NCBI GenBank assembly: GCA_964620325.1
Contig: CAZUIM010000019.1
Coordinates: forward strand, 1,142-40,166
Length of the DNA stretch: 39,025 bases
Source: an uncultured Thermotogae bacterium
Lineage (GTDB): Bacteria; Bipolaricaulota; Bipolaricaulia; UBA7950; UBA9294
Reading direction: 5' to 3'
This document shows, one piece after another, positions 1-37,820 of this stretch. The first letter of the stretch is position 1, and every line of letters begins with the position of its first letter. The notes below the pieces were generated by a model that saw only the letters and a program-made list of their open reading frames with translations, was not told the origin of the DNA and ran no database searches. Made by a program: the position numbers and the translations under genes.

Positions 1-360
1 CGTCGCCGACCTGGTTGGTGTCGGACTCGGGCGTCAGGGACAGGCGCAGGTCGATCCACGTCTTGGACGCGGGGTCGGCCGAGACGCTGGCGTCGGCGCC
101 GGCGACGGTGCCGTCGAACGACGCGTTCATCGTCAGCGTTCCGGGGGTGTTCGAGGTGAGCGTCTTGGTGGCGACGCCGCTCGTGTCGGTCGTCACCGTC
201 TCGCTGCCGCTCAAGATGCCGGCCCACTCGAAGTCGACGGCGGCGCCGGAGACGGGGGTCCACGTCGTGCCGTTGGTCGTCTGCTCGAGGGTGGCGGTAA
301 AGGTGTGATCGTCGCCGACCTGGTTGGTGTCGGACTCGGGCGTCAGGGACAGGCGCAGGT
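1..360 (-). repeat. Intragenic tandem domain repeat. An exactly identical 56-nt segment occurs at 1-56 and 305-360, a period of 304 bp (about 101 aa), within the adhesin gene.
   Basis: Direct comparison of 1-56 with 305-360 shows they are identical. Sequence diverges immediately after. Confidence 0.85.
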
Positions 361-2017
361 CGATGCCGGTGTAATGCGAGGAGTCCGCATCCGAGTATGG
401 ATCTCCGCGATACTGACCGGTCGCCGTTGCTTCGTTCGAGTACGGCCCCACCTCGGCGATTCCCGTTGCTCGATACGTCCACGTCTCTCCCGGGTCGAGC
501 ACATCATTGCCGTTCGTGTCGCCGGATTCGTAGAGAGGCGTGACTCCTTGGTCGTCGCTGACGGTGACGTCCTGCAGTCGAACGTCTCCCGAGTTGGTCA
601 CCTCGTAGACCCAAGTCACGGTGGCTCCGACGGCCACGTACGGACCGGGTGCCGCGTCAGCATCTTCTCCGTTTGTGAACTTCTCCACATCAATCGATGG
701 ATCTGGACACGCCGGTCCTGTGGTCGGCTTCGGGCAGACCTTCGTGCCCGCTTTGATGGCCGCTTCCACACTCCCCTCGGGCCAATACCCGTACAGCATC
801 AGAGTGAACGTTCTCGAGGATCCGACCTCGACGCCGCTGTCGAACTTGAGCCCCGTCACGCCGGTCGTCGGGTCGTACCCGTAGTCGACCGTGCCGGGGC
901 CGGTGCCTGAATAATCGATGTCGCCGCTCGTCACGCAACTTGGCAGACCGAGAATCCAATGGCTGGTCGCCGGGCTGGCGTTCGACGTGATCGTGTACGT
1001 AAAGACGGTCTTATCGGTAGCGGAGTTGTACGAACTCCCCTTGAAATCTATGATGTAGTTGGCGCATTCCGGCTCGACCACGGTGAGGAGAGCGGCCTGT
1101 GACTCGACCGTGCCGCAATCGGTGCTGATCCGAACAATGTAGTCCCCTTCGTCACTCTGGTCGACGTCGGTCAGCGTTAGCGTGTCCGTCGTGGAGCCGG
1201 AGACGCCGTTCCCATTGACGAGAAGCACTCCGTTCTTGTACCACTGGTAGGAGAGGCCGCTTCCTGTTGCCGAGACGGAGAAGACGACGTCCTCCGCCTC
1301 GTAGACGGTTGCGTCCTCCGGCTCATCGGTGATCTGCGGCTGGGTGCAGACGATCGTCAGTCTCCCGAAGACGTAGGCGACGTTGTCTCGGTCTTCTTTG
1401 GTGATGAAATAGCTGAGCGGGGTTCCGCCCCCGGCGCTGCTCGTGAATCCGAGGATCTCCAACGTGTACTTCGTGTCGTCGATCCAGAAGGTGTCCGATG
1501 TGCTTCCGGGGAACGTGACGCGATCGTAACATCCTTTGTAGTCGCCTCCGTACGGGCAGACGTTCCCAGGGTTGTCGTCCGGATCGTTCGGGGTCTCGTG
1601 AAATCCGAGAACGTATGTGAACTCCGGGTCGGGCGAAATCGCAGGGCTGTCGAAATGAAGGGTGATCTCCAATTCGACCTCCGTCGGCGCGTCTCCCATG
1701 ATCGGCTTGTTGTGGTGAGTGAACGTTCCGATGAGGAAGCTCTCACCCGAATCGAACGACTCGTTCGAGTTCCCGTCGAAGTCGAACCCGCTCCGACCTG
1801 AACCGGTCGACGTTCCCCACCGAATCTCGCTGGTGTTCAGTCCGGTGACCGACACGTCCGCATCTGTCCAGATGCCATTCGCCGTCGCAAGCTGGAAATC
1901 TGTGCCACTGGCGACGAAGGCCGAGAAGACCAGCGTCACAAGCGCAATGAGAACTACAGCTCCGGCCGTCTCCCCCCAGCTTCTACCCCGGGATGCCGCA
2001 GTCTGCCGCACAGCCAT
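1..2017 (-). CDS. Giant secreted surface/adhesin-like protein, N-terminal roughly 670 aa. The gene continues past window position 1. It has a signal peptide, a THHN-motif domain reminiscent of choice-of-anchor domains, an Ig-like (I-set) domain, a DUF11-like conserved repeat domain and tandem roughly 100-aa Big-like repeats.
   Basis: Manual reverse translation from the ATG at complement 2015-2017 gives MAVRQTAASRGRSWGETAGAVVLIALVTLVFSAFVASG... (signal/TM). A GGAGGA RBS lies 7 nt upstream. Recognisable motifs are FTHHNKPIMG, YQWYKNG...DEGDYIVRISTDCG (Ig-like) and VTWVYEVTNSGDV (DUF11-like), plus repeated IDLRLSLTPESDTNQVGDDHTFTATLEQ units. The frame remains open to position 1. It is absent from the ORF track only because no stop codon lies inside the window. 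High GC3. Confidence 0.7.
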   Translation of the reverse strand, partial: MAVRQTAASRGRSWGETAGAVVLIALVTLVFSAFVASGTDFQLATANGIWTDADVSVTGLNTSEIRWGTSTGSGRSGFDFDGNSNESFDSGESFLIGTFTHHNKPIMGDAPTEVELEITLHFDSPAISPDPEFTYVLGFHETPNDPDDNPGNVCPYGGDYKGCYDRVTFPGSTSDTFWIDDTKYTLEILGFTSSAGGGTPLSYFITKEDRDNVAYVFGRLTIVCTQPQITDEPEDATVYEAEDVVFSVSATGSGLSYQWYKNGVLLVNGNGVSGSTTDTLTLTDVDQSDEGDYIVRISTDCGTVESQAALLTVVEPECANYIIDFKGSSYNSATDKTVFTYTITSNASPATSHWILGLPSCVTSGDIDYSGTGPGTVDYGYDPTTGVTGLKFDSGVEVGSSRTFTLMLYGYWPEGSVEAAIKAGTKVCPKPTTGPACPDPSIDVEKFTNGEDADAAPGPYVAVGATVTWVYEVTNSGDVRLQDVTVSDDQGVTPLYESGDTNGNDVLDPGETWTYRATGIAEVGPYSNEATATGQYRGDPYSDADSSHYTGIDLRLSLTPESDTNQVGDDHTFTATLEQTTNGTTWTPVSGAAVDFEWAGILSGSETVTTDTSGVATKTLTSNTPGTLTMNASFDGTVAGADASVSADPASKTWIDLRLSLTPESDTNQVGD

Positions 2018-2066
2018 CGAATCCTCCTTGGAGTTGGCAACCCGGCAGCCTCCCGAGAGGTCCGCG

Positions 2067-2106
2067 GCTTTGCGTCCTGTTCTCACGAACAGTTTGCCCT
2101 TTTCAG
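2067..2106 (-). promoter_or_regulatory. Conserved upstream element, copy A: GCTTTGCGTCC-N14-GTTTGCCCTTTTCAG. It lies 50-90 nt upstream of the adhesin start. It is a putative operator/promoter, possibly the RHH regulator's binding site.
   Basis: A near-identical element is present at 2612-2651 upstream of the neighbouring RHH gene. The 15-mer GTTTGCCCTTTTCAG is identical in both copies. The GCTTTGCG(T/C)CC box is at the same spacing in both. TTTGC(G/C) units are reiterated. Confidence 0.5.
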
Positions 2107-2152
2107 CTCAATTCCTTCGAGTTCTCGTTACATCCTTTCCGTGTGCACTTCG

Positions 2153-2482
2153 TCAAGGGGTTGTGTGCTCGTTGTGTCGTCCCTGAATGATCAGAGCGCG
2201 CTCCACCGCCTCCGGCTCGACCAACCGCTCTTCGAGCAGGATATCACCGAGAAGCTTGTCGGTGAACTTGCTCTTCTGAAGCTCAAGGCCCTTCGCGAGA
2301 TCCACATGGCTGAGCACACCGAGGTCGACGAGGATTTCGCCGAGCCGCTTCTCGCGCTCGAAGTGCTTTTCGAGGATCGAAAGGATGACGGCGCTGCGGC
2401 TCTTCCGCTCACGACGTCCTTTCGCGTCGACCTGTTTCATCAGGTAGGCGTCCGCCTCGTTGTAGTAGATGGTCGTCTGCAC
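2153..2482 (-). CDS. Ribbon-helix-helix (CopG/Arc/MetJ-like) DNA-binding domain fused to a tandem MshEN-type c-di-GMP-binding motif. Putative c-di-GMP-responsive transcription factor.
   Basis: GTG start, with an AGGAAGGAG RBS 7 nt upstream. The N-terminal TTIYYNEADAYLMKQVDAKGRRERKSRSAVILSILEKHF fits an RHH beta-strand plus two helices. RLGEILVDLGVLSHVDLAKGLELQ matches the 24-residue MshEN motif RLGxx(L/V/I)(L/V/I)xxG(L/V/I)(L/V/I)xxxxLxxxLxxQ exactly. After a 5-residue spacer (KSKFT) comes a second copy, KLLGDILLEERLVEPEAVERALIIQ (G10 replaced by R). Confidence 0.75.
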   Translation of the reverse strand: MQTTIYYNEADAYLMKQVDAKGRRERKSRSAVILSILEKHFEREKRLGEILVDLGVLSHVDLAKGLELQKSKFTDKLLGDILLEERLVEPEAVERALIIQGRHNEHTTP

Positions 2483-2523
2483 GTTTCGGCTCCTTCCTCT
2501 TCGAACCGGCTTCCAAACGAAAA

Positions 2524-2554
2524 GGCCGGGTCCCAGTCACCCTGGTAACCCGGC
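2524..2554 (-). terminator. Intrinsic-terminator-like hairpin in the minus-strand leader of the RHH-MshEN gene. An 11-bp GC-rich interrupted stem is followed by CUUUUCGUUU. It is either a transcription attenuator or the 3' end of a small leader RNA.
   Basis: Minus-strand RNA: GCCGGGUUACCAGGGUGACUGGGACCCGGC CUUUUCGUUUGG. The stem pairs GCCGGGU with ACCCGGC, with an inner CCAG/CUGG pairing and a 5-nt loop. The U-tract is oriented for the minus strand only. It lies about 40 nt upstream of the RBS. Additional hairpins (GCGAGC-cgcguc-GCUCGC, a C(UUCG)G loop) lie further 5'. Confidence 0.45.
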
Positions 2555-2611
2555 TGCCATGAACTCTTACTCGAGTTCTCTCGCGAGCGACGCGGCTCGC
2601 GCAGGCCCGAA

Positions 2612-2651
2612 GCTTTGCGCCCCTACCTTGCGATAGGTTTGCCCTTTTCAG
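2612..2651 (-). promoter_or_regulatory. Conserved upstream element, copy B: GCTTTGCGCCC-N14-GTTTGCCCTTTTCAG. It lies 130-170 nt upstream of the RHH-MshEN gene and is flanked by AT-rich GTATAT repeats.
   Basis: See copy A. TTGC cores at 2615, 2628 and 2639 are spaced 11-13 bp apart. GTATAT at 2652 and GTATATAT at 2673 are rare AT-rich patches in a GC-rich genome. Confidence 0.5.
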
Positions 2652-2773
2652 GTATATGAACCAATGGCGACAAGTATATATGCCCCTCCAGTTCGTGTCA
2701 AGAGGCGGAAAGACACCAAGGAAAGGACCTTCTTTTGCATGTTCCATGGAATCGGTATGCAGTGCGCCGTCGA

Positions 2774-2803
2774 TTGCGGCTCGATCGACCTGTGATCTAT
2801 ACT
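2774..2803 (+). promoter_or_regulatory. Putative sigma70-type promoter of mutS: TTGCGG-N18-TATACT. The -10 element ends 11 nt before the ATG, so the mRNA is likely leaderless or near-leaderless.
   Basis: TTGCGG at 2774-2779 and TATACT at 2798-2803. No Shine-Dalgarno sequence precedes ATG 2814. Confidence 0.4.
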
Positions 2804-2813
2804 CGACGATACG

Positions 2814-5333
2814 ATGACGGCCGATCAGACTCCGATGATGAAGCAGTATCTGCGTTTCAAGGCCGAACACCCGGATGCCATCCTCTTCTTTCACTTGGGG
2901 GATTTCTACGAAGCGTTCTTCGAAGACGCAGAGACGCTCGCCCGGGAACTGGACATCGTCCTCACCTCGAGGAACGGCCATCCGATGGCCGGCGTTCCGA
3001 TCCGTCGAGGATCGGCCTACGTGAACCAGCTGTTGAAGAAGGGGTACAAGGTTGCGATCTGCGATCAGATCGAGGATCCGAAGAAGGCGCACGGGCTCGT
3101 CAAGCGGGATGTCGTTCGAATTGTCACGCCGGGGACCGCGCTCGACGAATCGGTTCTCGATCCGGGGGCGAACAACTACTTGGCCGCCGTGCATCGGCCG
3201 ACGGGACGTGAGACGATCGGTCTGTCGTTCGTCGATCTCTCCACCGGCGAGTTCATCTGCACGGCCGTGGCATCGCTCGCCGTCTGCCTCGGCGAAATCG
3301 AACGACAGGATCCGACGGAGGTTCTCCTGTCGTCGGCTGCATCGGACGATCTGAGGCGCCTCCTCTCGGAGCGGACGCTGACCGACCTTCCGCCGACCGC
3401 CTTCGTGGCGGCCGCTTCGGATGAGCTCGGTGTCGATGAGGCGGCTCTGCAGGCGGCCGGAGCGATCGCCGAGTACGTCGGAGCGACCCAGAAGGCGGCG
3501 CAGGTGCAGATGCGACCTCTGCGGGCGTATTCGGTCTCCGACCACGTCGATCTCGATCCATTCACTGTCACCAGTCTCGAGCTGGTGAAGCCGCTTCGAG
3601 ACGGGAAAGAACGAGGGACACTCCTCCACGTACTCGACGAAACGACGACGAGCATGGGGCGCCGACGTCTGCGACGGATGGTCCTCTCGCCCCTCACCGA
3701 CCGGGCGACCCTCGAGGAGCGGCTCGACGCGGTCGGCTCGATGGTCGAGGCGAGTCTGCTCCGCCAGGAGCTTCGCGACCGACTCAAAGACGTGCACGAT
3801 CTCGAGCGGCTGGCCGGGCGGCTCGGCGCCGGGCGATTCCATCCGCACGACTTGAGCGTTCTCCTGCGTTCTCTCGGTGCGATTCCTTCCGTTTGTCGGC
3901 TGATCGAGGAGGGGGGCGATCAAGATCGAAGCCGAACGTTCGCCCGTCTCCGCGACGCGATGGGCGACGCCGACGTCGGAGGGCTGACCGCACGGTACGG
4001 CTCCATGCTCGTCGACCAGCCGCCGGTCGACCCTCGAGACGGTGGACTCATCGAGAACGGCTACAGCCACGAACTCGATCGCTTACGGGACGAGACGCGA
4101 ACCCTGCGAGAGGCGTTGACGACCCTCGAGGCGGACGAGCGAGAGCGAACCGGGATTCCATCGCTCAAGGTCGGGTACAACAGGGTCTTCGGGTACTACA
4201 TCGAGGTGACCAGGCCTCATCTCGACAAGGTTCCCGAGGAGTACCGTCGCCGTCAGACGCTGGCGAATGCTGAGCGGTTCGTAACCGACGCCCTTCGCGG
4301 GATCGAGGAGAAGATCGCGCTCTCCGAAGAGCGGACGACCGCCCTCGAGGTGAAGCTCTTCGATGAAGCGGTCAACGCACTGGCTGAGAGGATCCCGCAG
4401 ATTCAAGCCGTCGCCGATGCACTCGCCGAGCTCGATGTGATCCTCGGGCTCGCCGACGTGGCGCATCGGAATGCGTACGTTCGGCCGTCGTTCACGGAGA
4501 AACACGCGCTGGTGATCCGCGGCGGTAGGCACCCGGTGGTCGAGCAAATCGAGGAATTCGTTCCGAACGATCTCGATCTCTCCGACGGCCGAGATCTGGT
4601 GATTCTGACCGGGCCAAACATGGCCGGAAAGTCGGTCTTCCTCCGCCAGACGGCGCTGATCTCACTGATGGCGCAGATCGGCTCGTTCGTCCCCGCCTCC
4701 GAGGCGAGGCTTCCGATCGTCGAGAGCATCTTCGCCCGCGTCGGAGCGAGCGACATGCTCGTTGCCGGGGTGAGCACGTTCATGATGGAGATGCTCGAGG
4801 TCGCTGCCATCCTCGAGCGTGCCACGTCGCGCAGTCTGATCATTCTCGACGAGATGGGGAGAGGGACGAGCACGTTCGACGGTGTCTCAATCGCGTGGGC
4901 GGTCGCCGAGGAGTTGGCTCGCAAGGTTCGAGCGAAAACCCTCTTCGCTACGCACTACCAAGAGATGACGCGTCTCGCCGACGAGGTTCCGAACGTCGTC
5001 AATCTGCACGTCGCCGTCAAGGAGGTCGGCTCCGAGATCGTCTTCCTCCACCGCGTCGAGCCGGGGACAGCGGCCGGGAGCTACGGGGTGCACGTCGCCC
5101 GCCTCGCCGGCCTGCCGCAACACGTCACTGAGGCGGCAGATCGGATTCTCGCGGAGCTCCTCGCCGACGCTCCGCTCTCCGAGCTCGGCGGGGGGCAAGT
5201 CGCGGAGCGGATCCCGCTGTTCGGGGCGGAGGACCACCCGATCGTGCAGCGGCTTCGTCGACTCGATCCGAATCGGATGACGCCGCTCGAGGCGCTCGAG
5301 ACACTGGCCGAGTTGATCGAGGAGGCGGAGTGA
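2814..5333 (+). CDS. mutS: DNA mismatch repair protein MutS
   Basis: The N-terminus MMKQYLRFKAEHPDAILFFHLGDFYEAFFEDA is the canonical MutS mismatch-recognition domain. Walker A (GPNMAGKS) and DE(M/L)GRGTSTFDG motifs are present. 839 aa. Confidence 0.95.
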   Translation: MTADQTPMMKQYLRFKAEHPDAILFFHLGDFYEAFFEDAETLARELDIVLTSRNGHPMAGVPIRRGSAYVNQLLKKGYKVAICDQIEDPKKAHGLVKRDVVRIVTPGTALDESVLDPGANNYLAAVHRPTGRETIGLSFVDLSTGEFICTAVASLAVCLGEIERQDPTEVLLSSAASDDLRRLLSERTLTDLPPTAFVAAASDELGVDEAALQAAGAIAEYVGATQKAAQVQMRPLRAYSVSDHVDLDPFTVTSLELVKPLRDGKERGTLLHVLDETTTSMGRRRLRRMVLSPLTDRATLEERLDAVGSMVEASLLRQELRDRLKDVHDLERLAGRLGAGRFHPHDLSVLLRSLGAIPSVCRLIEEGGDQDRSRTFARLRDAMGDADVGGLTARYGSMLVDQPPVDPRDGGLIENGYSHELDRLRDETRTLREALTTLEADERERTGIPSLKVGYNRVFGYYIEVTRPHLDKVPEEYRRRQTLANAERFVTDALRGIEEKIALSEERTTALEVKLFDEAVNALAERIPQIQAVADALAELDVILGLADVAHRNAYVRPSFTEKHALVIRGGRHPVVEQIEEFVPNDLDLSDGRDLVILTGPNMAGKSVFLRQTALISLMAQIGSFVPASEARLPIVESIFARVGASDMLVAGVSTFMMEMLEVAAILERATSRSLIILDEMGRGTSTFDGVSIAWAVAEELARKVRAKTLFATHYQEMTRLADEVPNVVNLHVAVKEVGSEIVFLHRVEPGTAAGSYGVHVARLAGLPQHVTEAADRILAELLADAPLSELGGGQVAERIPLFGAEDHPIVQRLRRLDPNRMTPLEALETLAELIEEAE

Positions 5334-6274
5334 ACGGCGGAGCGGAGATCCATCGCCCCGTTCTGACGACCGAGGTCGTTCGTCTCCTCTCTGGGCTTCC
5401 GAAGCCGACGGTCGTCGATGGGACGATCGGGCTCGGGGGACACGCAGAGGCGATCCTCGAAGGGAAGGCCGACACGCGCGTGATCGGGATCGATCGGGAC
5501 GAAGGGGCACTCGCGATCGCGGAGGCGCGTCTGGCCCGGTTTGGAGATCGGGTTCAGCTCGTTCACGGAGACTTCGTGGACGTCGCGGTGCATCTCGCTC
5601 GACTCGGTGTCGAGACGGTCGGAGGGCTGCTTCTTGACATCGGCGTCTCGTCGTTCCAACTCGACGATCCGGAGAGAGGCTTCAGCTTCCGACGTGACGG
5701 GCCACTCGATATGAGGATGGATCCGTCGGCCGGCAGCCCGGCCTCGGCCTGGCTCTCGACGGTTCGAGAAGACGAGCTGGCGGCTGCGTTGTGGTCGTAC
5801 GGCGAGGAACGATACGCGCGGCGGATCGCCCGGGAGATCGTCCGGGCCCGCGTGTCCGACGCGATTCTGACGACCGGCGCGCTGCGCCGGGTCGTCCACC
5901 GGGCCGTTCCGAATCGATACTTCGATGGCCCGATCGATCCGGCGACGCGGACGTTCCAGGCGATTCGGATCGTCGTCAATCGTGAACTCGCGAGTCTCGA
6001 GCGAGGACTGGAGACCGGCTTCGCCGTTCTCGCACGCGGCGGGGTCCTCGTTGTCATCTCGTTTCACTCACTCGAGGATCGGATCGTCAAGCGGTTTCTT
6101 CGCGAACGTGCGGCCGATTGCATCTGTCCGCCGGAACTTCCCGAATGCATGTGCGACAAGCAGATCGAGGCCGAGATCCTGACGCGGCGTCCGATGGTCC
6201 CGGACGCGGACGAGGTCGCCCGAAACCCGAGGGCCCGAAGCGCGAAACTCCGCGCGGGGAAGAAGGTCGTCTAG
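5330..6274 (+). CDS. rsmH: 16S rRNA (cytosine1402-N4)-methyltransferase RsmH (MraW)
   Basis: GTG start overlaps the mutS stop (GTGA). A GAGGAGG RBS is present. Motifs include GGHAEAIL, DIGVSSFQLD, FHSLEDRIVK and a C-terminal NPRARSAKLR. Confidence 0.9.
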   Translation: MNGGAEIHRPVLTTEVVRLLSGLPKPTVVDGTIGLGGHAEAILEGKADTRVIGIDRDEGALAIAEARLARFGDRVQLVHGDFVDVAVHLARLGVETVGGLLLDIGVSSFQLDDPERGFSFRRDGPLDMRMDPSAGSPASAWLSTVREDELAAALWSYGEERYARRIAREIVRARVSDAILTTGALRRVVHRAVPNRYFDGPIDPATRTFQAIRIVVNRELASLERGLETGFAVLARGGVLVVISFHSLEDRIVKRFLRERAADCICPPELPECMCDKQIEAEILTRRPMVPDADEVARNPRARSAKLRAGKKVV

Positions 6275-6338
6275 TTCGGGTTCCAACACGACAGCTGTCC
6301 GTCTCCGGTGATCCGGGGTCGACTACGCTCACGAGGAG

Positions 6339-6680
6339 ATGTTGCACCGCGGTCGAAACCGTACGGTGGAAGGTGAACGGTCGCGGCGCCGGGGGGCGAG
6401 AGTTCCGAGCCGATGGATCGCGCTTTCCGGCGTCACGACCCTCATTGTCGGCCTCTGCTTCCTCTATGTCCTTCAGGCAACGGCTCTTCGCAGTCTGACC
6501 GCGGAATGCGAGCAGGCTCGCGACGAACTCGTGCGCGTGGAGGAGGTCAACCTCACACTCGAATTTGAGATCGAACAGGCGTTCTCGCTGGAGCGAGTCT
6601 CAAGAATCGCTCGAGAGCGCCTCGGTATGGTCGAACCTTCGGTGGTCAGATATGTCCCCGTTCCTGCGTCGGAAGACTAG
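6339..6680 (+). CDS. ftsL: Cell division protein FtsL-like (septum formation initiator)
   Basis: ATG with an ACGAGGAG RBS. It has one TM helix (WIALSGVTTLIVGLCFLYVL), then a coiled coil and an ERVSRIARERLGM motif. Its position between rsmH and ftsI matches dcw-cluster synteny. Confidence 0.6.
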   Translation: MLHRGRNRTVEGERSRRRGARVPSRWIALSGVTTLIVGLCFLYVLQATALRSLTAECEQARDELVRVEEVNLTLEFEIEQAFSLERVSRIARERLGMVEPSVVRYVPVPASED

Positions 6681-8424
6681 CGATTCGACGACCCGTCGCC
6701 GTGGTCGCGTGGTCGCGGCGATCCTCATCCTCTGTGCAATGGCCGTGGTCGGACGGCTGCTGCAGCTTCAGATCATCGACGGAAGTCAATGGCGTGCGCT
6801 CGCTGCGTCGGTCCAGGAGCGAACCCTCGATCTCCCCCCGAGACGCGGTGCGATTCTCGACCGGGACGGGACCCCGCTCGCGTTCGACGTGAAGGCGACA
6901 GCGATCGCCGTCGACGGGTTCAACATGACCAAGCCGGAGACGCTGGTGACGATCTTGGCCGACGAACTCGATCGCTCCGAGGCCGAGATCTCAGATCTGG
7001 TCTATCGGTCGAGCTATTTCACATGGGTCGATCGTTCCGCGCCGCTCGATGCGGCGCAGCGGATCGAGGAGCGTGCTGCGGATGCCGGAGCCTACGGGCT
7101 GATCTTCTTCGACACCTGGAAACGGTGCTATCCACAGGGGCGATTGGCGTCGAACGTGATCGGCTTCGTCGGTACGGACGGAAGCGGTCTCGAGGGGATC
7201 GAGCTCTCCTTCGACGAGACCCTTCGGGGGGTCCCGAAGCGAGTGCGAGTCGTCGAAGGCGCAGACGGTCGCACCTACCAGACGGACGTGATCGATCCGG
7301 GGAGGCCGGGGGAGGACGTTGTCCTTACGCTCGACGCCGATCTCCAATTCATCTGTGAGGACGAGATCGAGGCGGGCGTCTCGCGCTTCCGGGCCGCCGC
7401 CGGCGTGATTGTCGCCGTCGACCTGAGCACCGGCGAGGCTCTGGCGATGGCACAGGACAAGGGATACGACCTGAACGAGTTCCAGTCATCGACCCTGGTA
7501 GAGCGAAGAAACCTGGCCGTGGCAGCGATCTTCGAGCCTGGGTCGATCTTCAAGGTCTTCGCCGGCCTGGCGGCGCTCGAGGCCGGCATTGTCGGGGTCG
7601 ATGACACGTTCGACGGAAACGACGGGATCGCGATCGGCGGACACGTCATGCACAACGCCGATCGGGTCGACTACGGGACCGTGACGTTCGGACAGACGAT
7701 CGAGGACTCGGTGAACACGGCGATGATCCAGGTGGCCCTTCGCCTCGGCGAGGAGGGGCTCCGCTCGTATCTCGCGGACCTCGGATTCGGTCGGCGGACC
7801 GAGATCGGGCTTCCCGGAGAGGAGGCCGGGATTCTGCGTCCGGCCGCTGTGTGGTCGTCGCTCGACTTGGCCGCAGCCTCGATCGGCCAGTCGGTCGCGG
7901 TGACGGCGATCCAGCTCACCCGAGCGCTCGCCTGTGTTGCCAACGACGGGATTCTTCCCGAGGTGAGCATCGTGCGGCACGGGGAGGTCGGCGCTGGAAG
8001 TCGCGTCGCGACCGAGGAATCGACGGCGACGATGCTCGAGCTGATGACGCGGGTCGTCGAGTCCGGGACCGGAACGCTCGCTGCGATCGACGGGTTCACG
8101 ATCGCCGGAAAGACGGGGACGGCGCAGAAGGCGACGAGCGAACGTGGCTACGCCGACGGGAAGTACACATCCCTGTTTGCCGGCTGTCTTCCGGCCGAGG
8201 ATCCACACGTCGTGATCCTCGTCGTCCTCGACGAGGTCGGCACGACGCCGGTCTCAGGCGGATACACCGCGGGGCAGATCTTCCAAGAGACGGCGACGAG
8301 GATGATTCACGCCGAACGACTGGCATCGACGACATCGGACACCTATGAGCCTCGGAGCCACGCTCCGGCGACGAGCGTTGAAGGGCGTGTGCTGAGCGGG
8401 GAGGAGCTGTTCGGGCGACACTAG
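6652..8424 (+). CDS. ftsI: Peptidoglycan D,D-transpeptidase FtsI (class B penicillin-binding protein)
   Basis: An N-terminal TM anchor is followed by a PBP dimerisation domain. Transpeptidase motifs SIFK (SxxK), SVN (SxN) and KTGTA (KTG) are present. The start was chosen at ATG 6652, overlapping the ftsL end. The ORF-track start at 6565 is less likely. Confidence 0.9.
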   Translation: MSPFLRRKTSDSTTRRRGRVVAAILILCAMAVVGRLLQLQIIDGSQWRALAASVQERTLDLPPRRGAILDRDGTPLAFDVKATAIAVDGFNMTKPETLVTILADELDRSEAEISDLVYRSSYFTWVDRSAPLDAAQRIEERAADAGAYGLIFFDTWKRCYPQGRLASNVIGFVGTDGSGLEGIELSFDETLRGVPKRVRVVEGADGRTYQTDVIDPGRPGEDVVLTLDADLQFICEDEIEAGVSRFRAAAGVIVAVDLSTGEALAMAQDKGYDLNEFQSSTLVERRNLAVAAIFEPGSIFKVFAGLAALEAGIVGVDDTFDGNDGIAIGGHVMHNADRVDYGTVTFGQTIEDSVNTAMIQVALRLGEEGLRSYLADLGFGRRTEIGLPGEEAGILRPAAVWSSLDLAAASIGQSVAVTAIQLTRALACVANDGILPEVSIVRHGEVGAGSRVATEESTATMLELMTRVVESGTGTLAAIDGFTIAGKTGTAQKATSERGYADGKYTSLFAGCLPAEDPHVVILVVLDEVGTTPVSGGYTAGQIFQETATRMIHAERLASTTSDTYEPRSHAPATSVEGRVLSGEELFGRH

Positions 8425-8427
8425 CCG

Positions 8428-10275
8428 CTACCGCCGCAGGTGGATGGCGAGGATCGAGAGATCGGCCTGGGAGACGCCGGGAACGCGGGTCGCCTGTCCG
8501 AACGATCGAGGTCGGACGCGAGCCAGGAGATCTCGGCCTTCGATCGAAATGCCTTCGAGCGCGCGAAAGTCGACGTCGGCCGGGATGGCCAGGGACTCCA
8601 TTCGTCGGAGCCGCTCGATCTGTCGCTCTTGCTGTTCGAGATAGCCGGCGTACTTCCCGGCGATCTCCGCCTCGAGGAGAACGTCGCCGGAGAGCCCGTC
8701 TGGTTCCACCAGATCCTCGATGCGCACGTGCGGACGCCGTAGGAGGTCGAACAGCGAGGTGCCGTTCTTCGAAAGTGCTGAGCTCCCTCTCTCGGCCAGA
8801 CGGGTGTTCAGTGGATCGCTCGGCCCGACGCGCGTTTCGACCATTCGATCGATGAGCCGTTCGATCGATCGCCGTCGTTCGAGGAAGCGTTCGTACTTCT
8901 CGTCAGAGAGGAGGCCGATCGTGTGTCCGAGATCGCAGAGCCGGAGATCGGCGTTGCCCTCGCGGAGTGTGATCCGGTATTCGGCCCGTGACGGGAGCAT
9001 CCGATACGGCTCGGTGATCCCTTTGGTGACGAGATCGTCGACGAGGACTCCGGCGAACGCCTGTCCGCGATCGAGAATCAAGGGAGGTTCTCCTCGGAGT
9101 CGGCGGACGGCGTTCACTCCGGCGAGGAGGCCGAGGGCGGCCGCCTCCTCGTAACCGGTCGTTCCGATGATCTGGCCGGCGAGGTAGAGGCCGGAGATTC
9201 CATCGACTTGAAGGGACGCGTCGACGTGGAGCGGATCGACGTGGTCGTACTCGATGTTGTACCCATACCGCTCGATCTGTGCTCGTTCCAGCCCGCGAAT
9301 CGAACGGACGATTCGATCCTGGATCTGCGGGGAGAAGGCGGTGTAGATCCCCTGGAGATAGACCTCCGGCCGGTTTCGCCCCTCCGGTTCGCAGAAGACC
9401 TTGTGCGAGGTCCGCTCGGGGAAGCGGACGATCTTCGTCTCTAATGAGGGGCAGTGGCGTGGACCGACGCCGTTCATCAGACCGTTGTAGTTTGCGCTCC
9501 GGTCGAGACTTGTCGCGATGATCGCGTGCGTCCGGGGGTTCGTATGCGTCACGTGGACAGGGAAGTTGTCAGGGAGGACCTGCGGAGTCGACCAGAAGGA
9601 GAAGGCGAGCGGGCGCTCGCTCGTTGCCTGTCGTTCGAGGGTCGTTGTGTCGATCGAGTCTCTGGTGACGCGGGGTGGTGTTCCGGTCTTCATCCGGCGC
9701 AATCGGAGACCGAGATTTCGTAGCGCTCGAGCGAGATCGATCGACGGCGGCTCACCTGCCCGGCCGGCTGGGTGGGCCTCGCGACCGAGAAGGATCCTTC
9801 CGTTCAGGAACGTGCCGGCGCAGACGATGACGGCCTTCGCCTTCAACGTCCGACCGTCCTGCAGGCGAACGCCTTCCACACGGCGGCTTCGTACGACGAG
9901 TTCATCGACGCACGCCTCGACGACGTCAAGAGATTCCTCGCCCGCGAGGATCTCCTTCCACGCGAGCTCATACGTGTCACGATCGGCTTGGGCGCGACGG
10001 ACCTGCATCGCCGGCCCCTTGCTCGAGTTCAGGATGCGGATGTGAATCGCCGCGGCGTCGGCGACGCGGGCCATCTGGCCGCCGAGCGCATCGATCTCGC
10101 GAACGAGCTGTGATTTTCCCGGCCCGCCGATCGCAGGATTGCAGGGCATCTTCCCGATCTCGGAGCGACGCATCGTGACCAGTGCCGTCTCGGCGCCGAG
10201 ACGGCTTGAAGCGACGGCCGCTTCGCATCCGGCGTGGCCGGCGCCGACCACGACGACGTCGTAGTAGCTCATCAC
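8428..10275 (-). CDS. mnmG: tRNA uridine 5-carboxymethylaminomethyl modification enzyme MnmG (GidA)
   Basis: The N-terminus YDVVVVGAGHAGCEAA is an FAD-binding fold. A GTGTPPR-like segment is present. 615 aa, typical for MnmG. Confidence 0.95.
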   Translation of the reverse strand: MMSYYDVVVVGAGHAGCEAAVASSRLGAETALVTMRRSEIGKMPCNPAIGGPGKSQLVREIDALGGQMARVADAAAIHIRILNSSKGPAMQVRRAQADRDTYELAWKEILAGEESLDVVEACVDELVVRSRRVEGVRLQDGRTLKAKAVIVCAGTFLNGRILLGREAHPAGRAGEPPSIDLARALRNLGLRLRRMKTGTPPRVTRDSIDTTTLERQATSERPLAFSFWSTPQVLPDNFPVHVTHTNPRTHAIIATSLDRSANYNGLMNGVGPRHCPSLETKIVRFPERTSHKVFCEPEGRNRPEVYLQGIYTAFSPQIQDRIVRSIRGLERAQIERYGYNIEYDHVDPLHVDASLQVDGISGLYLAGQIIGTTGYEEAAALGLLAGVNAVRRLRGEPPLILDRGQAFAGVLVDDLVTKGITEPYRMLPSRAEYRITLREGNADLRLCDLGHTIGLLSDEKYERFLERRRSIERLIDRMVETRVGPSDPLNTRLAERGSSALSKNGTSLFDLLRRPHVRIEDLVEPDGLSGDVLLEAEIAGKYAGYLEQQERQIERLRRMESLAIPADVDFRALEGISIEGRDLLARVRPRSFGQATRVPGVSQADLSILAIHLRR

Positions 10276-12485: not shown

Positions 12486-12583
12486 CCGGGAGCGTTTGTC
12501 TGCCGTTCGGGTAACCGACTCGCCGACCGGGCGGTACGTCGATGACCTCGCCACAAACGTACCGAGGGCACACTCGCCTCACC

Positions 12584-15514
12584 ATGCGAAGGATCCACTG
12601 TCTGCGGTCGTTGTCGGCCGTCGCCGCTTTCGTCTGTCTGGTTAGCCTGTCTGCCGACGCGACCGTTTCGATCTCGCTCTCTGCGGATCCGATCCCGGTC
12701 GCGCGGGGGGAGGATCTGAACTACGCGATCACAATCGAGAACCACGGTCCGGGCCCGATCGCCGACGCGACCCTCTACGTCCCGCTACCCGCGGGGATCG
12801 ACCAGTTGGCCGCCGAGGTCCGTGTCGAGGGCGGAGGCTGGGAACCGTATCCGCCGAACGGTCTCGTCCCCCTCGCGCCGCTTCCGGTCGATGAGCGGCG
12901 AGGCTTCGAGATCCGTGGGCGGGTGGAGCTGGGTGCGCCCGGGCGCTTGGCGACGACGGCACAGATCGTTTCGCCCTCTGGACCTCTGGCCGAGGAGTCT
13001 CTCGCGGTCAACGTTCTCCCTTCGGTCGATGCGGGACCCGATCTGATTGTCGAGCTCGGTGGAGCGGTGCACCTTGTCGGCTGCTCGGCCGACGATGGCG
13101 GAGACGGGATCGCGACGCTCGCGTGGTCCGACGACGGCGCGGGGGGGGCGTTCGACGATTCGGCGATTCTGCATCCGATTTACACCCCATGTGCGGCTAG
13201 CGGCCTCGTCGACCTGACCCTGTCCGTCAGCGACCACGACGGCGACGAGGCGAGCGACTCACTTCGCGTACGTGTCAACGAACTGCCGGTCGTCTACGCC
13301 GGGGACGATCGCATCACGCGACAATCAGCGTCGGTCGGTCTGGACGACGCGACGGCCTCCGATGCCGACGGGTGGATCGTCGAGTACACGTGGTCGGACG
13401 GTGGCGCCGGGGGGAGGTTCTCGCCGTCGGCCGATGTCTTTCATCCGACCTACGCGGTTCCGATGGTCGACCCGTGCGGCAACGGAGAGATCGAGTTGAC
13501 GTTGACCGCCGTCGACGATTGGGGCGGTGAGGCGGCCGACTCACTTTGGATCGTCGTGAGGAACCCGAATCGGCCGCCCTGCGTGGACGCCGGGGACAGC
13601 CTGACGGTCGAGAGCGGCGCGACGGTCACTCTGGACGGAGTTGCGACCGATCCGGACGGCGTCCTCGACGTCGTTGTGTGGGATCAGACGGGGGGGACGA
13701 CCGTCGCCATCACCGGGTCGAGCGCGACGGTCGAGTTTGTCGCTCCGGAGGTCGATGTCGTCGAGGAACTGAGGTTCCAGCTTCGGGCGGTCGACGGGTG
13801 CGGCGTCGTGGCGACCGACGAGATGACCGTGACCGTGGAGCCCGTGCCGACGTTCGGGGGCGAGCTCCGTCTCGCCGTCTCCATCGCCGCGTTCGATTCC
13901 TGGGGACTTCCGCTCTCGCCGCTCGACGTGCTCTCCGGCGGGGACGAGGTCCGGTTGGTGGTCGAGGTGCGGAACGTCGGCGACGGGCGGCTCGTCGACT
14001 TGCAGGGATGGACCGGCATGGGAGAGGACCTCGTCTTCGGGAAGGTCGAGCTTGGCCCGTGGGAGGCCGCTCGGGCGGAGTTCTTCCACTGCATCGAGCC
14101 CGGGACGCTCGACGAGCGGGTCGAACTCGGCGTCGAGGTCTCGGCAAGCGGCCCGAAGGGTGAACGGATCGTGGCCGACGATTCGATCGTCCTCGCCGTC
14201 CGGGAGCCGGTCGAGGCCCTCTCCCTCGAGAAACGGGTCGACGCCGCCGAGGCGGCCGTCGGAGAGACCATCGTTTACACGTACGCGATTCGAAACGTCG
14301 GCGGCTCGAACGTTTCGGGGATCGCCCTGGTCGATGATCGACTCGGATCGATCTCGCTTCCGCGGACGACTCTCGCTTCGGGGGAGAGCCTGACCGTCGC
14401 GGTCGAGTACATCGTTTCCGAGTCGGACGTCCCGGGGCCGCTCGTCAACACGGCGCAGCTGACCGGATTCGGGGTCTCCGGTGTGAGAACGCAAGTCGAT
14501 TCGGTCGCGTCGGTCGCGGTCGTCACGGCCGGTGAGGGCGGCGCCGGCGGGAGTTCCGCGGCGCCCACTGACGGTAGATTCCGGTCCGTCGTCATCAGTG
14601 AAGTCGCTTGGGGGGGAACATCGCATGACGCGGCCGACGAGTGGATCGAGCTGGTCAATCTGACGGATCGGCCGATCGACCTCGGCGGCTGGAGCCTTCG
14701 TTGGCGGGGCAGCTCGTCGGGCGGGCTCTGGCGATCGATCGACCTCGCAGGGACGATCGATCCGCTTCCCGTTCCGTTGACCGACTCCGTCGACGAGCTC
14801 GGTCGTCTCGCCTCCGTCCGCGAGGACGAGGGCTGGAGAGTCTTCGACCTTTCGTGGTGGAACGTCGGGAAGCGCGACGGCGACGGACGAGGGTTCTACG
14901 TTCTCGAGCGCGGCAGCGACGAGACGATCGCCGACCTGGCGGCCGACCTCGTCTACGGCGCCGACGAGACGTTCGCGCTCCCCGACGACGGGACGACCCT
15001 CTACCTGCACGCGCCGGACGGGACACTCGTCGATACTGCGAACGCGTCGTCGGCCTCAGGCTGGTCGGCCGGGGACGGTCGAAGCGGAGCAACGATGGAG
15101 CGGGTCAACCTCCTTCGCGCGGACGAGATAGGGAATTGGCAGACGAATCCGGGAATTCTGACCAATGGACGCGACGCGGCCGGGAGTCGACTCGTGGCGA
15201 CGGCCGGGAGGCCGAACTCGCCGAGCTTGGAGACACTGACCGTCTACGCTGCTTCGAAGGTTCCGGCGATCCGGGTCGACGCGGCGACGGAGGTTCCGAT
15301 TCCACTCGACGGATCGATCCGAGTCACGGTCGCCGAGGCGGGCGAGCCCTCGGGGGGCGGGGGGAGTTCGGTCGCCGGGCCGATCGTCACACGCCGGACG
15401 GAGAACGCCACGTGGTTCGTGTTCGACCCGGAGCGGTGGCCGGCCGGGACGGTCTGCGTTTGGGTCGTCTGTGCAGAAAGCACCTACTTGATCCCTTTGG
15501 TGCGGGGAGACTGA
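12584..15514 (+). CDS. Large secreted multidomain protein (976 aa). It has a signal peptide, an N-terminal DUF11-like domain, internal paired repeats (WSDDGAGGAFD... and WSDGGAGGRFS...) and a lamin-tail domain (LTD).
   Basis: Signal peptide MRRIHCLRSLSAVAAFVCLVSLSADA. The LTD signature is FRSVVISEVAWGG...DEWIELVNLTDRPIDLGGWSLRW. The start was chosen at ATG 12584. The upstream in-frame start at 12542 is less likely. Confidence 0.75.
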   Translation: MRRIHCLRSLSAVAAFVCLVSLSADATVSISLSADPIPVARGEDLNYAITIENHGPGPIADATLYVPLPAGIDQLAAEVRVEGGGWEPYPPNGLVPLAPLPVDERRGFEIRGRVELGAPGRLATTAQIVSPSGPLAEESLAVNVLPSVDAGPDLIVELGGAVHLVGCSADDGGDGIATLAWSDDGAGGAFDDSAILHPIYTPCAASGLVDLTLSVSDHDGDEASDSLRVRVNELPVVYAGDDRITRQSASVGLDDATASDADGWIVEYTWSDGGAGGRFSPSADVFHPTYAVPMVDPCGNGEIELTLTAVDDWGGEAADSLWIVVRNPNRPPCVDAGDSLTVESGATVTLDGVATDPDGVLDVVVWDQTGGTTVAITGSSATVEFVAPEVDVVEELRFQLRAVDGCGVVATDEMTVTVEPVPTFGGELRLAVSIAAFDSWGLPLSPLDVLSGGDEVRLVVEVRNVGDGRLVDLQGWTGMGEDLVFGKVELGPWEAARAEFFHCIEPGTLDERVELGVEVSASGPKGERIVADDSIVLAVREPVEALSLEKRVDAAEAAVGETIVYTYAIRNVGGSNVSGIALVDDRLGSISLPRTTLASGESLTVAVEYIVSESDVPGPLVNTAQLTGFGVSGVRTQVDSVASVAVVTAGEGGAGGSSAAPTDGRFRSVVISEVAWGGTSHDAADEWIELVNLTDRPIDLGGWSLRWRGSSSGGLWRSIDLAGTIDPLPVPLTDSVDELGRLASVREDEGWRVFDLSWWNVGKRDGDGRGFYVLERGSDETIADLAADLVYGADETFALPDDGTTLYLHAPDGTLVDTANASSASGWSAGDGRSGATMERVNLLRADEIGNWQTNPGILTNGRDAAGSRLVATAGRPNSPSLETLTVYAASKVPAIRVDAATEVPIPLDGSIRVTVAEAGEPSGGGGSSVAGPIVTRRTENATWFVFDPERWPAGTVCVWVVCAESTYLIPLVRGD

Positions 15515-37815: not shown

Positions 37816-37820
37816 TTCCG

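Follow-up and report, generated by a model that had tools for sequence, protein, structure and literature searches.

A 109-aa protein, encoded between two c-di-GMP riboswitches, may well act as a c-di-GMP-modulated transcription regulator, a protein-level layer on top of riboswitches that control genes for surface and secreted proteins; this layer would be feed-forward or autoregulatory in nature. We put the probability of this reading at roughly 55%. The protein joins a probable ribbon-helix-helix (RHH) to an MshEN_N-type four-helix module, hence RHH-MshEN in the following. A single surface-protein operon thereby appears to be under the joint control of riboswitches and a likely protein sensor for one and the same signal. 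The features of the locus are given below by their coordinates in the window, i.e. the whole stretch of 39,025 nt of DNA that was analysed.

2673-2701 (-): sigma-70-type promoter, TTGACA-17-TATACT, 11 of 12 consensus matches (shuffle mean 0.2 sites)
2540-2652 (-): c-di-GMP-I (GEMM-I) riboswitch aptamer 1, as judged from sequence, in the leader of the RHH-MshEN gene; long P2-loop insertion
2516-2554 (-): terminator-like hairpin CCGGGUUACCAGG/CUGGGACCCGG with CUUUUCGUU tail; the 3' strand of aptamer 1 doubles as the 5' arm of the hairpin
2490-2497 (-): Shine-Dalgarno sequence GGAAGGAG of the RHH-MshEN gene, read off the sequence
2153-2482 (-): RHH-MshEN protein gene, 109 aa, GTG start; open reading frame and codon-change evidence
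2348-2482 (-): probable ribbon-helix-helix, residues 1-45; strand MQTTIYY, helices 9-25 and 29-44, N-cap RKSRS
2183-2347 (-): MshEN_N-type four-helix module, residues 46-100, from profile, sequence and fold matches; c-di-GMP binding predicted; motif I residues 46-69, spacer 70-76, motif II 77-100
2032-2107 (-): c-di-GMP-I riboswitch aptamer 2, as judged from sequence, in the leader of the surface-protein gene; Rfam 62.9 bits vs 59, E 1.1e-12
2015-2029 (-): Shine-Dalgarno sequence AAGGAGG (2023-2029) and ATG (2015-2017) of the surface-protein gene, beginning 3 nt past aptamer 2
2-2017 (-): 5' part (672 codons) of the gene for a secreted multi-Ig-domain surface protein, continuing beyond the window

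The 109-aa ORF named in the original prediction is a genuine gene. Between 12 orthologues the codon positions 1, 2 and 3 differ 172, 97 and 634 times, respectively, and 514 synonymous stand against 210 non-synonymous codon changes, so that purifying selection acts on this frame. In addition to the GTG start and the Shine-Dalgarno sequence found here, most orthologous leaders carry a purine-rich box of the GGAG type (GGAGG, GGGAG or AGGAG) 5-12 nt upstream of the start codon. Homologues of the protein number 437 at E≤1e-3 and are mostly about 104-115 aa long; the full-length family falls into about 45 clusters at 50% identity, and 133 genomic copies of the gene were located. Its neighbors are mutS and the riboswitch-controlled surface-protein gene, and this chromosomal synteny is kept across many genomes. 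Some family members were named 'metal-responsive CopG/Arc/MetJ family regulator' by JGI pipelines.

A scan of the 39 kb with Rfam and with our own models yielded only two c-di-GMP riboswitches, both of them flanking the RHH-MshEN gene. Aptamer 1 falls into Rfam clan CL00126 with RF03167 as the best model (63.8 bits vs a gathering score of 59, E 5.7e-13) and scores 74.2 bits with the covariance model built here; the best clan model of aptamer 2 is again RF03167, and the score with our own model R1 is 80.2 bits. Both therefore fit the 'GGC variant' best, yet have A, not G, at the variant-defining position 37, and some orthologous aptamers score best with RF01051 (51-65 bits vs 35). Judged by sequence and covariation, both RNAs are c-di-GMP-I riboswitch aptamers. 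In the alignment of 23 related aptamers, pairing holds in 93.8% of cells, compared to 28-49% in slid controls, double (compensatory) changes occur at 13 of 21 aptamer pairs, and the covariation score was reached by none of 500 shuffles. Model positions 10 (G) and 37 (A) are invariant in the 23 aligned sequences and lie 27 nt apart, as do G20 and A47, which together with C92 are the ligand-contact nucleotides of GEMM-I (PMC4744006); a C is retained at junction position 75, tested as the C92 equivalent, with the mapping of model positions to Vc2 numbering being our own reading. The repeats at 2067-2106 and 2612-2651, initially put forward as protein operators, are real, but they turned out to be the conserved 5' halves of these two aptamers.

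The upstream aptamer is present in 36 of 39 close loci from Bipolaricaulota and the downstream one in 35 of 39, located 18-285 nt beyond the RHH-MshEN stop codon. The arrangement was also found in 14 of 41 distant loci, and all 113 aptamer matches lie on the strand of the RHH-MshEN gene. As no riboswitch lies near the gene in 26 of the 41 distant family members, the coupling to riboswitches is lineage-specific. The proposed link to c-di-GMP is thus strongly and independently corroborated, because two c-di-GMP-I riboswitches bracket the gene and have been kept across a phylum.

Upstream of aptamer 1, the promoter pattern TTGACA-17-TATAGT/TATACT is found in 21 of 22 related loci, with the end of the -10 element exactly 20 nt upstream of the aptamer and no conservation upstream of the -35 element. 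The terminator hairpin is part of the minimum-free-energy fold of the leader. A corresponding hairpin of 11-16 pairs, using the 3' strand of the aptamer and followed by a U-rich tail, accompanies 48 of the 51 upstream aptamers and shows compensatory changes, for example in loci L042 and L033. Since terminator and aptamer 1 use one and the same 3' strand, we predict that riboswitch 1 is an ON switch. Regarding the second riboswitch, the Shine-Dalgarno sequence is located 3-21 nt beyond the downstream aptamer copies of related loci, and in the free fold that of the surface-protein gene pairs with CUCU of the aptamer's distal P2 region. It is more accessible with the aptamer closed in 32 of 35 loci, in a folding comparison that is biased, and from these folds we infer an ON polarity for aptamer 2 as well.

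The N-terminus of the surface protein is signal-peptide-like, and Pfam detects I-set, Ig_3 and DUF7507 domains in it, with Big_1 remaining sub-threshold (19.7 bits vs a cut-off of 34.9); in the orthologous downstream genes the domains are Big_1, CARDB, CLIPPER, LTD or of cadherin-like type. A secreted surface protein encoded next on the strand of the RHH-MshEN gene, as had been proposed, is thus confirmed, with Ig repeats, but the sequences support 'large' rather than 'giant', with 672 aa in the window and about 950-1300 aa in complete downstream proteins of related loci.

The N-terminal half, residues 1-45, is a probable ribbon-helix-helix by sequence and model, as originally proposed. We keep to 'probable' because the matches to CopG, CdbA and antitoxins are weak but consistent, with a Pfam RHH_1 match in 11 of the 25 family N-termini, the best at E 1.3e-4. 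Foldseek matched CopG (1ea4), CdbA (6sbw), StnY, TacA1 and VapB with target TM values of 0.43-0.72 but E values of 2-9; a PDB profile search gave CopG at E about 0.1, and the Pfam search of the window protein itself gave no RHH match. Of five AF2 models one reached a pLDDT of 76. It places helices at residues 9-25 and 29-44 and leaves residues 1-8 unstructured; this agrees with a strand that only dimerisation would bring about, since the ribbon is out of reach of a monomer model. Conservation in the N-terminal half peaks at the putative DNA-reading strand face (Q2, T4 and Y6, invariant in close homologues) and at the helix-2 N-cap (R26 and S28 invariant, S30 at least 90% in 29 diverse members).

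These conserved residues fit DNA contact better than dimerisation alone, and to our knowledge nearly all characterised RHH proteins bind DNA. Both points count against an alternative that we consider unlikely, namely a c-di-GMP receptor without a role in transcription, in which the RHH serves for dimerisation only; the protein would then buffer or sequester c-di-GMP, or act as an adaptor on a partner such as the secretion or surface-protein machinery, in the manner of MshEN and PilB N-domains, which operate by contacts with other proteins. This alternative draws its support from the RHH-MshEN gene being conserved beside genes for secreted proteins (S8 subtilase as well as adhesins), from the complex of the PilB N-domain with PilZ (7lkn), which is also among the Foldseek matches, and from MshEN domains normally regulating attached or partner proteins (PMC5013675); a buffer would moreover need synthesis of the ligand-binding protein only at high ligand. 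A search of the locus for an operator, the outcome of which also favors a receptor of this kind, gave no convincing one, the best candidate being a 9-nt direct repeat (2649-2657 and 2671-2679, 22-nt spacing) that may be mere -10-like sequence. The proposed role as a repressor of the adhesin found no support.

Residues 46-100 form, according to sequence and model, an MshEN_N-type four-helix bundle with predicted c-di-GMP binding, for which the conservation of contact residues and the position of the gene between two c-di-GMP riboswitches speak indirectly. The 109-aa protein matches NCBIfam NF053729 above the cut-off (42.2 bits vs 38, E 4.9e-11), and in the PDB sequence-profile search PilF GSPII-C aligns to the C-terminal half at E 3.3e-10 and MshE 5HTL at E 2e-3. 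The AF2 bundle helices comprise residues 47-53, 59-71, 78-84 and 90-105 (pLDDT 74-88 in these blocks), and Foldseek superimposes the model on the c-di-GMP-bound structures of MshE and PilF GSPII-B (5htl and 8pdk) with an rmsd of 1.1-1.2 Å over 57-59 residues at 32-40% identity (5htl_B: 1.1 Å, 59 columns, probability 1.00). The MshEN domain reading is hereby upheld; in its details, it required some correction. Compared to the tandem 24-residue consensus RLGxx(L/V/I)(L/V/I)xxG(L/V/I)(L/V/I)xxxxLxxxLxxQ, motif I (RLGEILVDLGVLSHVDLAKGLELQ) agrees at all constrained positions as claimed, including all eight key positions, but spans residues 46-69 rather than 47-70. The spacer comprises seven residues (K70-K76), not five, as in Thermus PilF GSPII-C. 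The second copy is present but degenerate, matching 8 of 11 constrained positions, with the strict consensus broken by Leu77 for Arg and Arg86 for the turn Gly and a conservative change of Leu to Val93; the consensus L, G, L and Q are retained. In the mutS-linked clade the turn Gly is replaced by Arg or Glu.

The loss of Arg and turn Gly from motif II speaks for a further reading that we regard as quite improbable, an RHH transcription factor with a non-binding bundle that would serve as an oligomerisation or partner domain, as in the N-domains of XpsE and GspE, so that c-di-GMP input came from the riboswitches alone. R38G is indeed among the changes that Wang et al. list in the non-binder XpsE, and a Pfam search of the 109-aa protein gave no T2SSE_N match. 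Against this, motif I is perfect, the equivalents of G11, I19, L29, G40, L58 and Q61, which are altered in XpsE, are all retained, and 29 diverse members show no variation at G48, G79, L97 and Q100 and hardly any at L66 and Q69; more distant members of the family possess a canonical motif II (RLGxxLV..G). Leu also occupies position 1 of motif II in PilF GSPII-B, which binds c-di-GMP at 6 nM, and GSPII-C has an affinity of about 500 nM, similar to MshEN (PMC11731258); for the isolated MshEN_N of MshE a KD of 0.35 µM was reported (PMC5013675). It is highly improbable that we are dealing with a toxin-antitoxin pair in which the protein is the RHH antitoxin, or with some unrelated small regulator from a plasmid or phage, given that, despite matches to the antitoxins TacA1, VapB and 7e4j in the Foldseek and PDB profile searches, no toxin-sized ORF adjoins the gene, its mutS and surface-protein neighbors keep their chromosomal synteny in many genomes, and the C-terminal half is MshEN-like and not a toxin-binding tail.

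For the c-di-GMP-modulated regulator we propose the following circuit. One sigma-70 promoter would serve, in this order, riboswitch 1, the RHH-MshEN gene, riboswitch 2 and the large surface protein of these Bipolaricaulota (Acetothermia). Binding of c-di-GMP to aptamer 1 would block the terminator, and the small protein and the read-through transcript would be made only at high c-di-GMP, while aptamer 2 would also gate translation of the surface protein by releasing its Shine-Dalgarno sequence. The protein would dimerise via the ribbon-helix-helix and bind DNA, with each MshEN_N bundle taking up one c-di-GMP per chain. In the model, the bundle starts two residues past RHH helix 2 with Arg46, predicted to stack on a guanine of c-di-GMP, at the junction; bound ligand could therefore alter the affinity for DNA or the way in which dimers assemble into dimers of dimers, much like the C-terminal ligand domains of NikR-type regulators. 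The most likely site of action is the regulator's own promoter. As the adhesin gene has its own c-di-GMP riboswitch, the RHH-MshEN protein would be an additional layer and not the minimal or sole c-di-GMP switch of the adhesin.

In c-di-GMP signalling, the enzymes that make or break the messenger are many, while the receptors known so far are comparatively few, above all outside Proteobacteria. In NikR-type regulators an RHH dimer at the N-terminus is combined with a small-molecule sensor at the C-terminus, which modulates DNA binding; RHH-MshEN would share this architecture logic, but NikR has an ACT-like metal domain where the former has an MshEN four-helix bundle, with a second messenger as its predicted ligand. 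With MshE, PilB and Thermus PilF it shares the tandem 24-residue motifs and the four-helix bundle, the closest sequence being PilF GSPII-C, and with GSPII-B the Leu at motif II position 1. In contrast to these proteins it consists of MshEN_N alone, fused to a DNA-binding-type module instead of the alpha/beta MshEN_C and the ATPase. Membership in the secretion ATPases MshE/PilB/GspE was rejected, as the protein stops at residue 109 and has no T2SSE match. CdbA of Myxococcus xanthus, one of the N-terminal structural matches, is a small c-di-GMP-responsive RHH protein (PMC7156744), as RHH-MshEN would be, but it is nucleoid-associated and shows no significant sequence similarity to RHH-MshEN. With a Foldseek E of 3-4 and CdbA absent from the PDB sequence-profile matches, we rejected membership in the CdbA family, characterised by sequence homology to CdbA and by an RHH tetramer that binds c-di-GMP, and regard CdbA as an analogue only.

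We came across an RHH+MshEN fusion neither in the paper that established MshEN nor in the searchable literature, and found no c-di-GMP literature on Bipolaricaulota/Acetothermia. As far as we found, RHH-MshEN would be the first MshEN sensor on a DNA-binding module and, at 109 residues, would rank among the smallest conceivable c-di-GMP transcription factors. We tentatively suggest that it could found a class of c-di-GMP-dependent transcription factors not described so far, with the widespread MshEN sensor wired directly to DNA binding and forming, together with the flanking riboswitches, a two-tier RNA-plus-protein feed-forward circuit. If so, the factor would be made only once the riboswitch permits it at high c-di-GMP, and its ligand state would then set promoter activity, allowing persistence detection or a rapid shut-off in the expression of adhesins and proteases by Bipolaricaulota, a largely uncultured phylum. 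The flanking riboswitches are independent sequence-level evidence for c-di-GMP and therefore turn a motif match into a testable regulon, and the locus offers a first handle on the control of surface attachment in these bacteria.

A ligand-sensing RNA that controls the synthesis of a protein for the same ligand is an unusual circuit logic. GEMM-I aptamers are known to precede adhesin genes (CD2831 and pilA1 in C. difficile, Cap in B. thuringiensis, PMC4933901), and tandem Bc3-5 likewise places several aptamers in one transcription unit (PMC4759541); here, however, the aptamers are split by the ORF of a putative c-di-GMP receptor. In a sister lineage an S8 protease, RHH-MshEN and an adhesin follow in succession, each with its own aptamer. 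In L093, apparently a distant lineage, one paralogue precedes a canonical RF01051 riboswitch and a gene for an outer-membrane protein, and a second is located about 0.9 kb upstream of a GGDEF/GAF/HD-GYP gene.

Computational analysis of the window placed two c-di-GMP aptamers, a promoter, a terminator overlapping the aptamer and a gene for a two-module protein next to each other on the minus strand, in an arrangement that is conserved:

2701-2673, minus strand: promoter TTGACA-17-TATACT (promoter scan)
2540-2652, minus strand: aptamer 1, in the leader of the RHH-MshEN gene (63.8 bits against a gathering score of 59, RF03167)
2153-2482, minus strand: RHH-MshEN gene, 109 aa, GTG start
2032-2107, minus strand: aptamer 2, in the leader of the surface-protein gene (62.9 bits against a gathering score of 59, RF03167)
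2015-2017, minus strand: ATG of the surface-protein gene, which leaves the window after 672 codons

With a probability of about 0.55 we read the RHH-MshEN protein as a c-di-GMP-modulated ribbon-helix-helix (RHH) regulator that would add a feed-forward or autoregulatory layer to the control of surface and secreted-protein genes. The ORF is present as claimed and has the Shine-Dalgarno (SD) sequence GGAAGGAG 7 nt 5' of its start codon. Against 12 orthologues, codon positions 1, 2 and 3 carry 172, 97 and 634 differences, and 514 codon changes are synonymous versus 210 non-synonymous; because of this distribution over the codon positions and the synonymous excess, comparative evidence identifies the ORF as a genuine coding sequence. 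Since the substitutions obey the minus-strand frame, the overlapping plus-strand ORFs 2141-2548 and 1719-2186 were ruled out, and the better-supported gene on the opposite strand that the original prediction had named as its counter-case was not found.

The two elements that had been proposed as DNA targets of the protein belong instead to two c-di-GMP-I (GEMM-I) aptamers encoded on the same strand as the gene. Each element is the 5' half of one aptamer, and both aptamers score above the gathering score of RF03167. This model was the best-scoring clan member for either aptamer, and the two are the only c-di-GMP-I matches in the whole 39-kb window. At the position that defines the RF03167 variant (model position 37) aptamers 1 and 2 and all 23 aptamers of our alignment A4 carry A, not G; the position lies 27 nt past the conserved G at position 10, as does A47 from G20 in Vc2 (ligand-contact residues from PMC4744006). 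Judged by the binding-site nucleotides, that is, by the base at the defining position, both would be canonical c-di-GMP-I aptamers, and it is possible that the capture of canonical aptamers of this phylum by the RF03167 model ('c-di-GMP-I-GGC variant') is a classification artefact. Among the 23 aligned aptamers 93.8% of the cells are paired versus 28-49% with slid partners, double changes occur in 13 of the 21 pairs, and the covariation score was attained by none of 500 shuffles. Covariation at this level supports the predicted GEMM-I fold.

Of 22 related loci, 21 have a promoter matching that of the window, the end of its -10 box lying exactly 20 nt 5' of the aptamer, and divergence is complete upstream of the -35 box. 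In aptamer 1 the 3' strand of P2 and P1 is provided by the segment CCGGGUUACCAGG, whose alternative partner is CUGGGACCCGG, followed by CUUUUCGUU (2516-2554). Mutually exclusive aptamer and terminator, with compensatory changes, were found for 48 of 51 upstream aptamers. We infer that riboswitch 1 is an ON switch, in which transcription reads through when c-di-GMP stabilises the aptamer; high c-di-GMP would turn on transcription of the RHH-MshEN gene. Between its stop codon (2153) and aptamer 2 neither a promoter nor a terminator was detected, and co-transcription of the RHH-MshEN and surface-protein genes is therefore likely. AAGGAGG and then the ATG follow 3 nt past aptamer 2, and in the ligand-free fold this SD is paired with CUCU of distal P2. 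In 35 loci the SD begins 3-21 nt past the downstream aptamer; it was more accessible with the aptamer closed in 32 of the 35, in a comparison biased towards that outcome, for which reason we grade the ON polarity of aptamer 2 as tentative. With this polarity high c-di-GMP would also turn on translation of the adhesin.

At E≤1e-3 we found 437 homologues of the RHH-MshEN protein, mostly 104-115 aa long and unannotated; the full-length ones fall into about 45 clusters at 50% identity. One cluster comes from Candidatus Aerophobetes. GTDB species representatives hold 133 copies. Loci were gathered with a closer alignment (A3), and the best 80 of these 133 genomic copies, which were inspected, come almost all from Bipolaricaulota/Acetothermia MAGs. 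Crude ORF calls gave many false ORFs in high-GC loci and were relied on only in combination with Pfam or precomputed gene calls. Close orthologues share their synteny: mutS in one direction and, in the other, aptamer, RHH-MshEN, aptamer and surface protein. Our own covariance model found 113 aptamers in the best 80 of 133 loci and the window, all of them on the gene's strand. Of 39 loci with ≥70% identity, 36 have an aptamer upstream, 35 downstream, 34 on both sides and one has none; the corresponding numbers for the 41 loci below 70% are 14, 10, 10 and 26. At ≥70% identity 41-79 nt separate the end of the upstream aptamer from the start codon, and the downstream aptamer starts 18-285 nt past the stop codon.

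Five loci (L014, L016, L023, L029, L044) carry two tandem upstream aptamers, 40-50 nt apart, plus one downstream aptamer, as do L006/L007 (9692-9946); a sharper dose response would be expected from such tandems. A second lineage has one aptamer ahead of each of three consecutive genes, for a secreted S8 subtilase, RHH-MshEN and a large adhesin, with three aptamers in about 1.8 kb (L067, L069 at 2635-4427, L070, L071, L073, L080, L086, L088, L064), and the pairing of subtilase and RHH-MshEN is retained in the three riboswitch-less loci checked (L066, L075, L091). Two RHH-MshEN paralogues are found in L093 (features at 864-1193, 1248-1321, 5001-5318 and 6209-8464): behind the first come a canonical RF01051 aptamer (65.2 bits) and the gene of a Toluene_X/FadL-type outer-membrane protein, and a GGDEF/GAF/HD-GYP gene is found about 0.9 kb downstream of the second. 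Judged only by its riboswitch with 56% GC and its distant proteins, L093 looks like a distant, non-Bipolaricaulota lineage.

The N-terminal half (residues 1-45) is probably an RHH domain, as had been predicted; the evidence here is weaker than for the C-terminal half, but consistent. AlphaFold2 places helices at 9-25 and 29-44, preceded by a strand-like MQTTIYY, and Foldseek returned CopG-DNA (1ea4), CdbA (6sbw), StnY, TacA1 and VapB (target TM 0.43-0.72, though at E 2-9). Of 25 relatives, 11 match Pfam RHH_1 at the N-terminus (best E 1.3e-4); the window protein does not. A PDB profile search restricted to the first 46 residues gave CopG and antitoxin matches at E about 0.1 only; its top matches, designed 'Bagel' proteins, were rejected as spurious repeat matches via the short word TIYxxxDxYL. 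A few family members are named 'CopG/Arc/MetJ family regulator' by JGI. Q2, T4 and Y6 are invariant among close homologues, and R26 and S28 are invariant, S30 nearly so, in 29 diverse members; the best-conserved N-terminal residues are the ones that an RHH would use on DNA.

A repeat search for an operator in 2640-2815 gave only one direct repeat, of 9 nt, and two inverted repeats, both weak, and in 28 promoters aligned by eye partial TGAAC...GTTCA symmetry and -10-like repeats were seen, none acceptable as an operator. The 9-nt copies, ATATACCTG and ATATACTTG on the minus strand, lie at 2649-2657 and 2671-2679 and are spaced by 22 nt; one overlaps the -10 box, the other abuts the start of aptamer 1, and in orthologues the second copy tends to mirror the local -10 variant. 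The repeat may represent an RHH operator or a second -10-like element, or have arisen by chance. Set beside this outcome, the protein might be a receptor or buffer for c-di-GMP that does not bind DNA; set beside the conserved N-terminal residues, we regard this as unlikely.

Motif I, the first of two tandem 24-residue MshEN motifs, fits the consensus RLGxx(L/V/I)(L/V/I)xxG(L/V/I)(L/V/I)xxxxLxxxLxxQ at every constrained position; it spans residues 46-69 (from Met1) and not 47-70. The second copy is likewise present (LLGDILLEERLVEPEAVERALIIQ, residues 77-100), but follows after 7 residues, not 5, and departs three times from the strict consensus, with Leu77 in place of Arg, Arg86 where the turn Gly is expected and Val93 instead of Leu. 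A profile search bore out the assignment, with NCBIfam NF053729 ('cyclic di-GMP-binding domain, MshE-related') at 42.2 bits versus a cut-off of 38 (E 4.9e-11) and weaker matches to the MshEN region of NfrB-type glycosyltransferases. Pfam gave no T2SSE_N match for the whole protein, probably because the N subdomain is present alone, and nothing but a chance EndoS_helical match (E 0.16). Matches of the family profile were Thermus PilF GSPII-C (E 3.3e-10, residues 299-361), N-termini of PilB (E about 5e-4) and MshE of V. cholerae (5HTL, E 2e-3). The best AlphaFold2 model (pLDDT 76; the other four 44-60) has four helices across residues 47-105, and its top Foldseek matches were c-di-GMP-bound MshE and PilF GSPII-B (rmsd 1.1-1.2 Å, 57-59 residues, 32-40% identity). 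G48, L51, G79, L97 and Q100 do not vary in the 29 diverse members, and L66 and Q69 hardly do.

For the MshEN_N bundle of MshE in isolation (62 residues), the KD for c-di-GMP is 0.35 uM (PMC5013675). The bundle of the RHH-MshEN protein would bind this ligand as well. PilF GSPII-B, in which Lys and Leu replace both motif Arg, binds c-di-GMP at 6 nM, and GSPII-C, with Pro at motif II position 1, has an affinity similar to MshEN, about 500 nM (PMC11731258); since both bind without Arg at that position, Leu77 is no obstacle to binding. Except for R38, the protein retains the equivalents of the residues altered in the non-binder XpsE (G11, I19, L29, R38, G40, L54, L58, Q61; PMC5013675), with Val at the L54 equivalent. 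An RHH factor with a bundle that lost ligand binding, to which the departures in motif II might point, has most of the binding residues against it and seems distinctly improbable. A subgroup of relatives (P0165, P0182, P0225) retains the RHH together with the first part of motif I (GEILxDMGVL), followed by an unrelated C-terminal tail without the conserved Gln residues, and may not bind the ligand. That the protein is an antitoxin, as are some of its N-terminal profile matches, is contradicted by the gene neighbourhood and hardly credible.

For the regulator modulated by c-di-GMP, the bundle starts two residues past RHH helix 2, which puts Arg46 at the junction, where the ligand could change DNA binding or higher-order assembly. 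MshEN fusions listed in the founding paper comprise ATPase, glycosyltransferase, REC, HD-GYP, CheA, CheX, cyclase and Ser/Thr kinase domains (PMC5013675); its text and supplement contain no RHH, CopG, HTH or 'DNA-binding' term. The novelty claimed for the fusion holds in so far as the full-text literature yielded CdbA-related papers and reviews only. CdbA is an RHH c-di-GMP receptor, but its RHH tetramer itself binds the ligand and it has no MshEN module. Adhesins under riboswitch control are already known; for two aptamers with the gene of a putative receptor of their ligand in between, as in this locus, we found no description in the literature, nor did we find c-di-GMP work on Bipolaricaulota. 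We class the modules and the riboswitch class as known, the combination and the circuit as new.

The surface protein has a signal-peptide-like N-terminus, I-set/Ig_3 and DUF7507 domains and a sub-threshold Big_1. A giant adhesin had been predicted as the next gene on the strand; a large surface protein is indeed encoded there, but 'giant' found no support, complete counterparts in related loci being about 950-1300 aa long. Assemblies of several samples break inside this gene (window 1-2017; L001-L005, L007, L008) and in other genome records it contains runs of N, in keeping with internal repeats. Another large surface protein (12542-15514, plus strand; 990 aa; PKD, DUF11, DUF7507 and lamin-tail domains) resembles the riboswitch-controlled one in general type and has no c-di-GMP aptamer in front. 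The window further contains the gene of a CsgG-like lipoprotein (curli secretion channel family) at 18669-19637 (minus strand) and, near its right end, an IS110-family transposase gene at 37623-38795 (plus strand).
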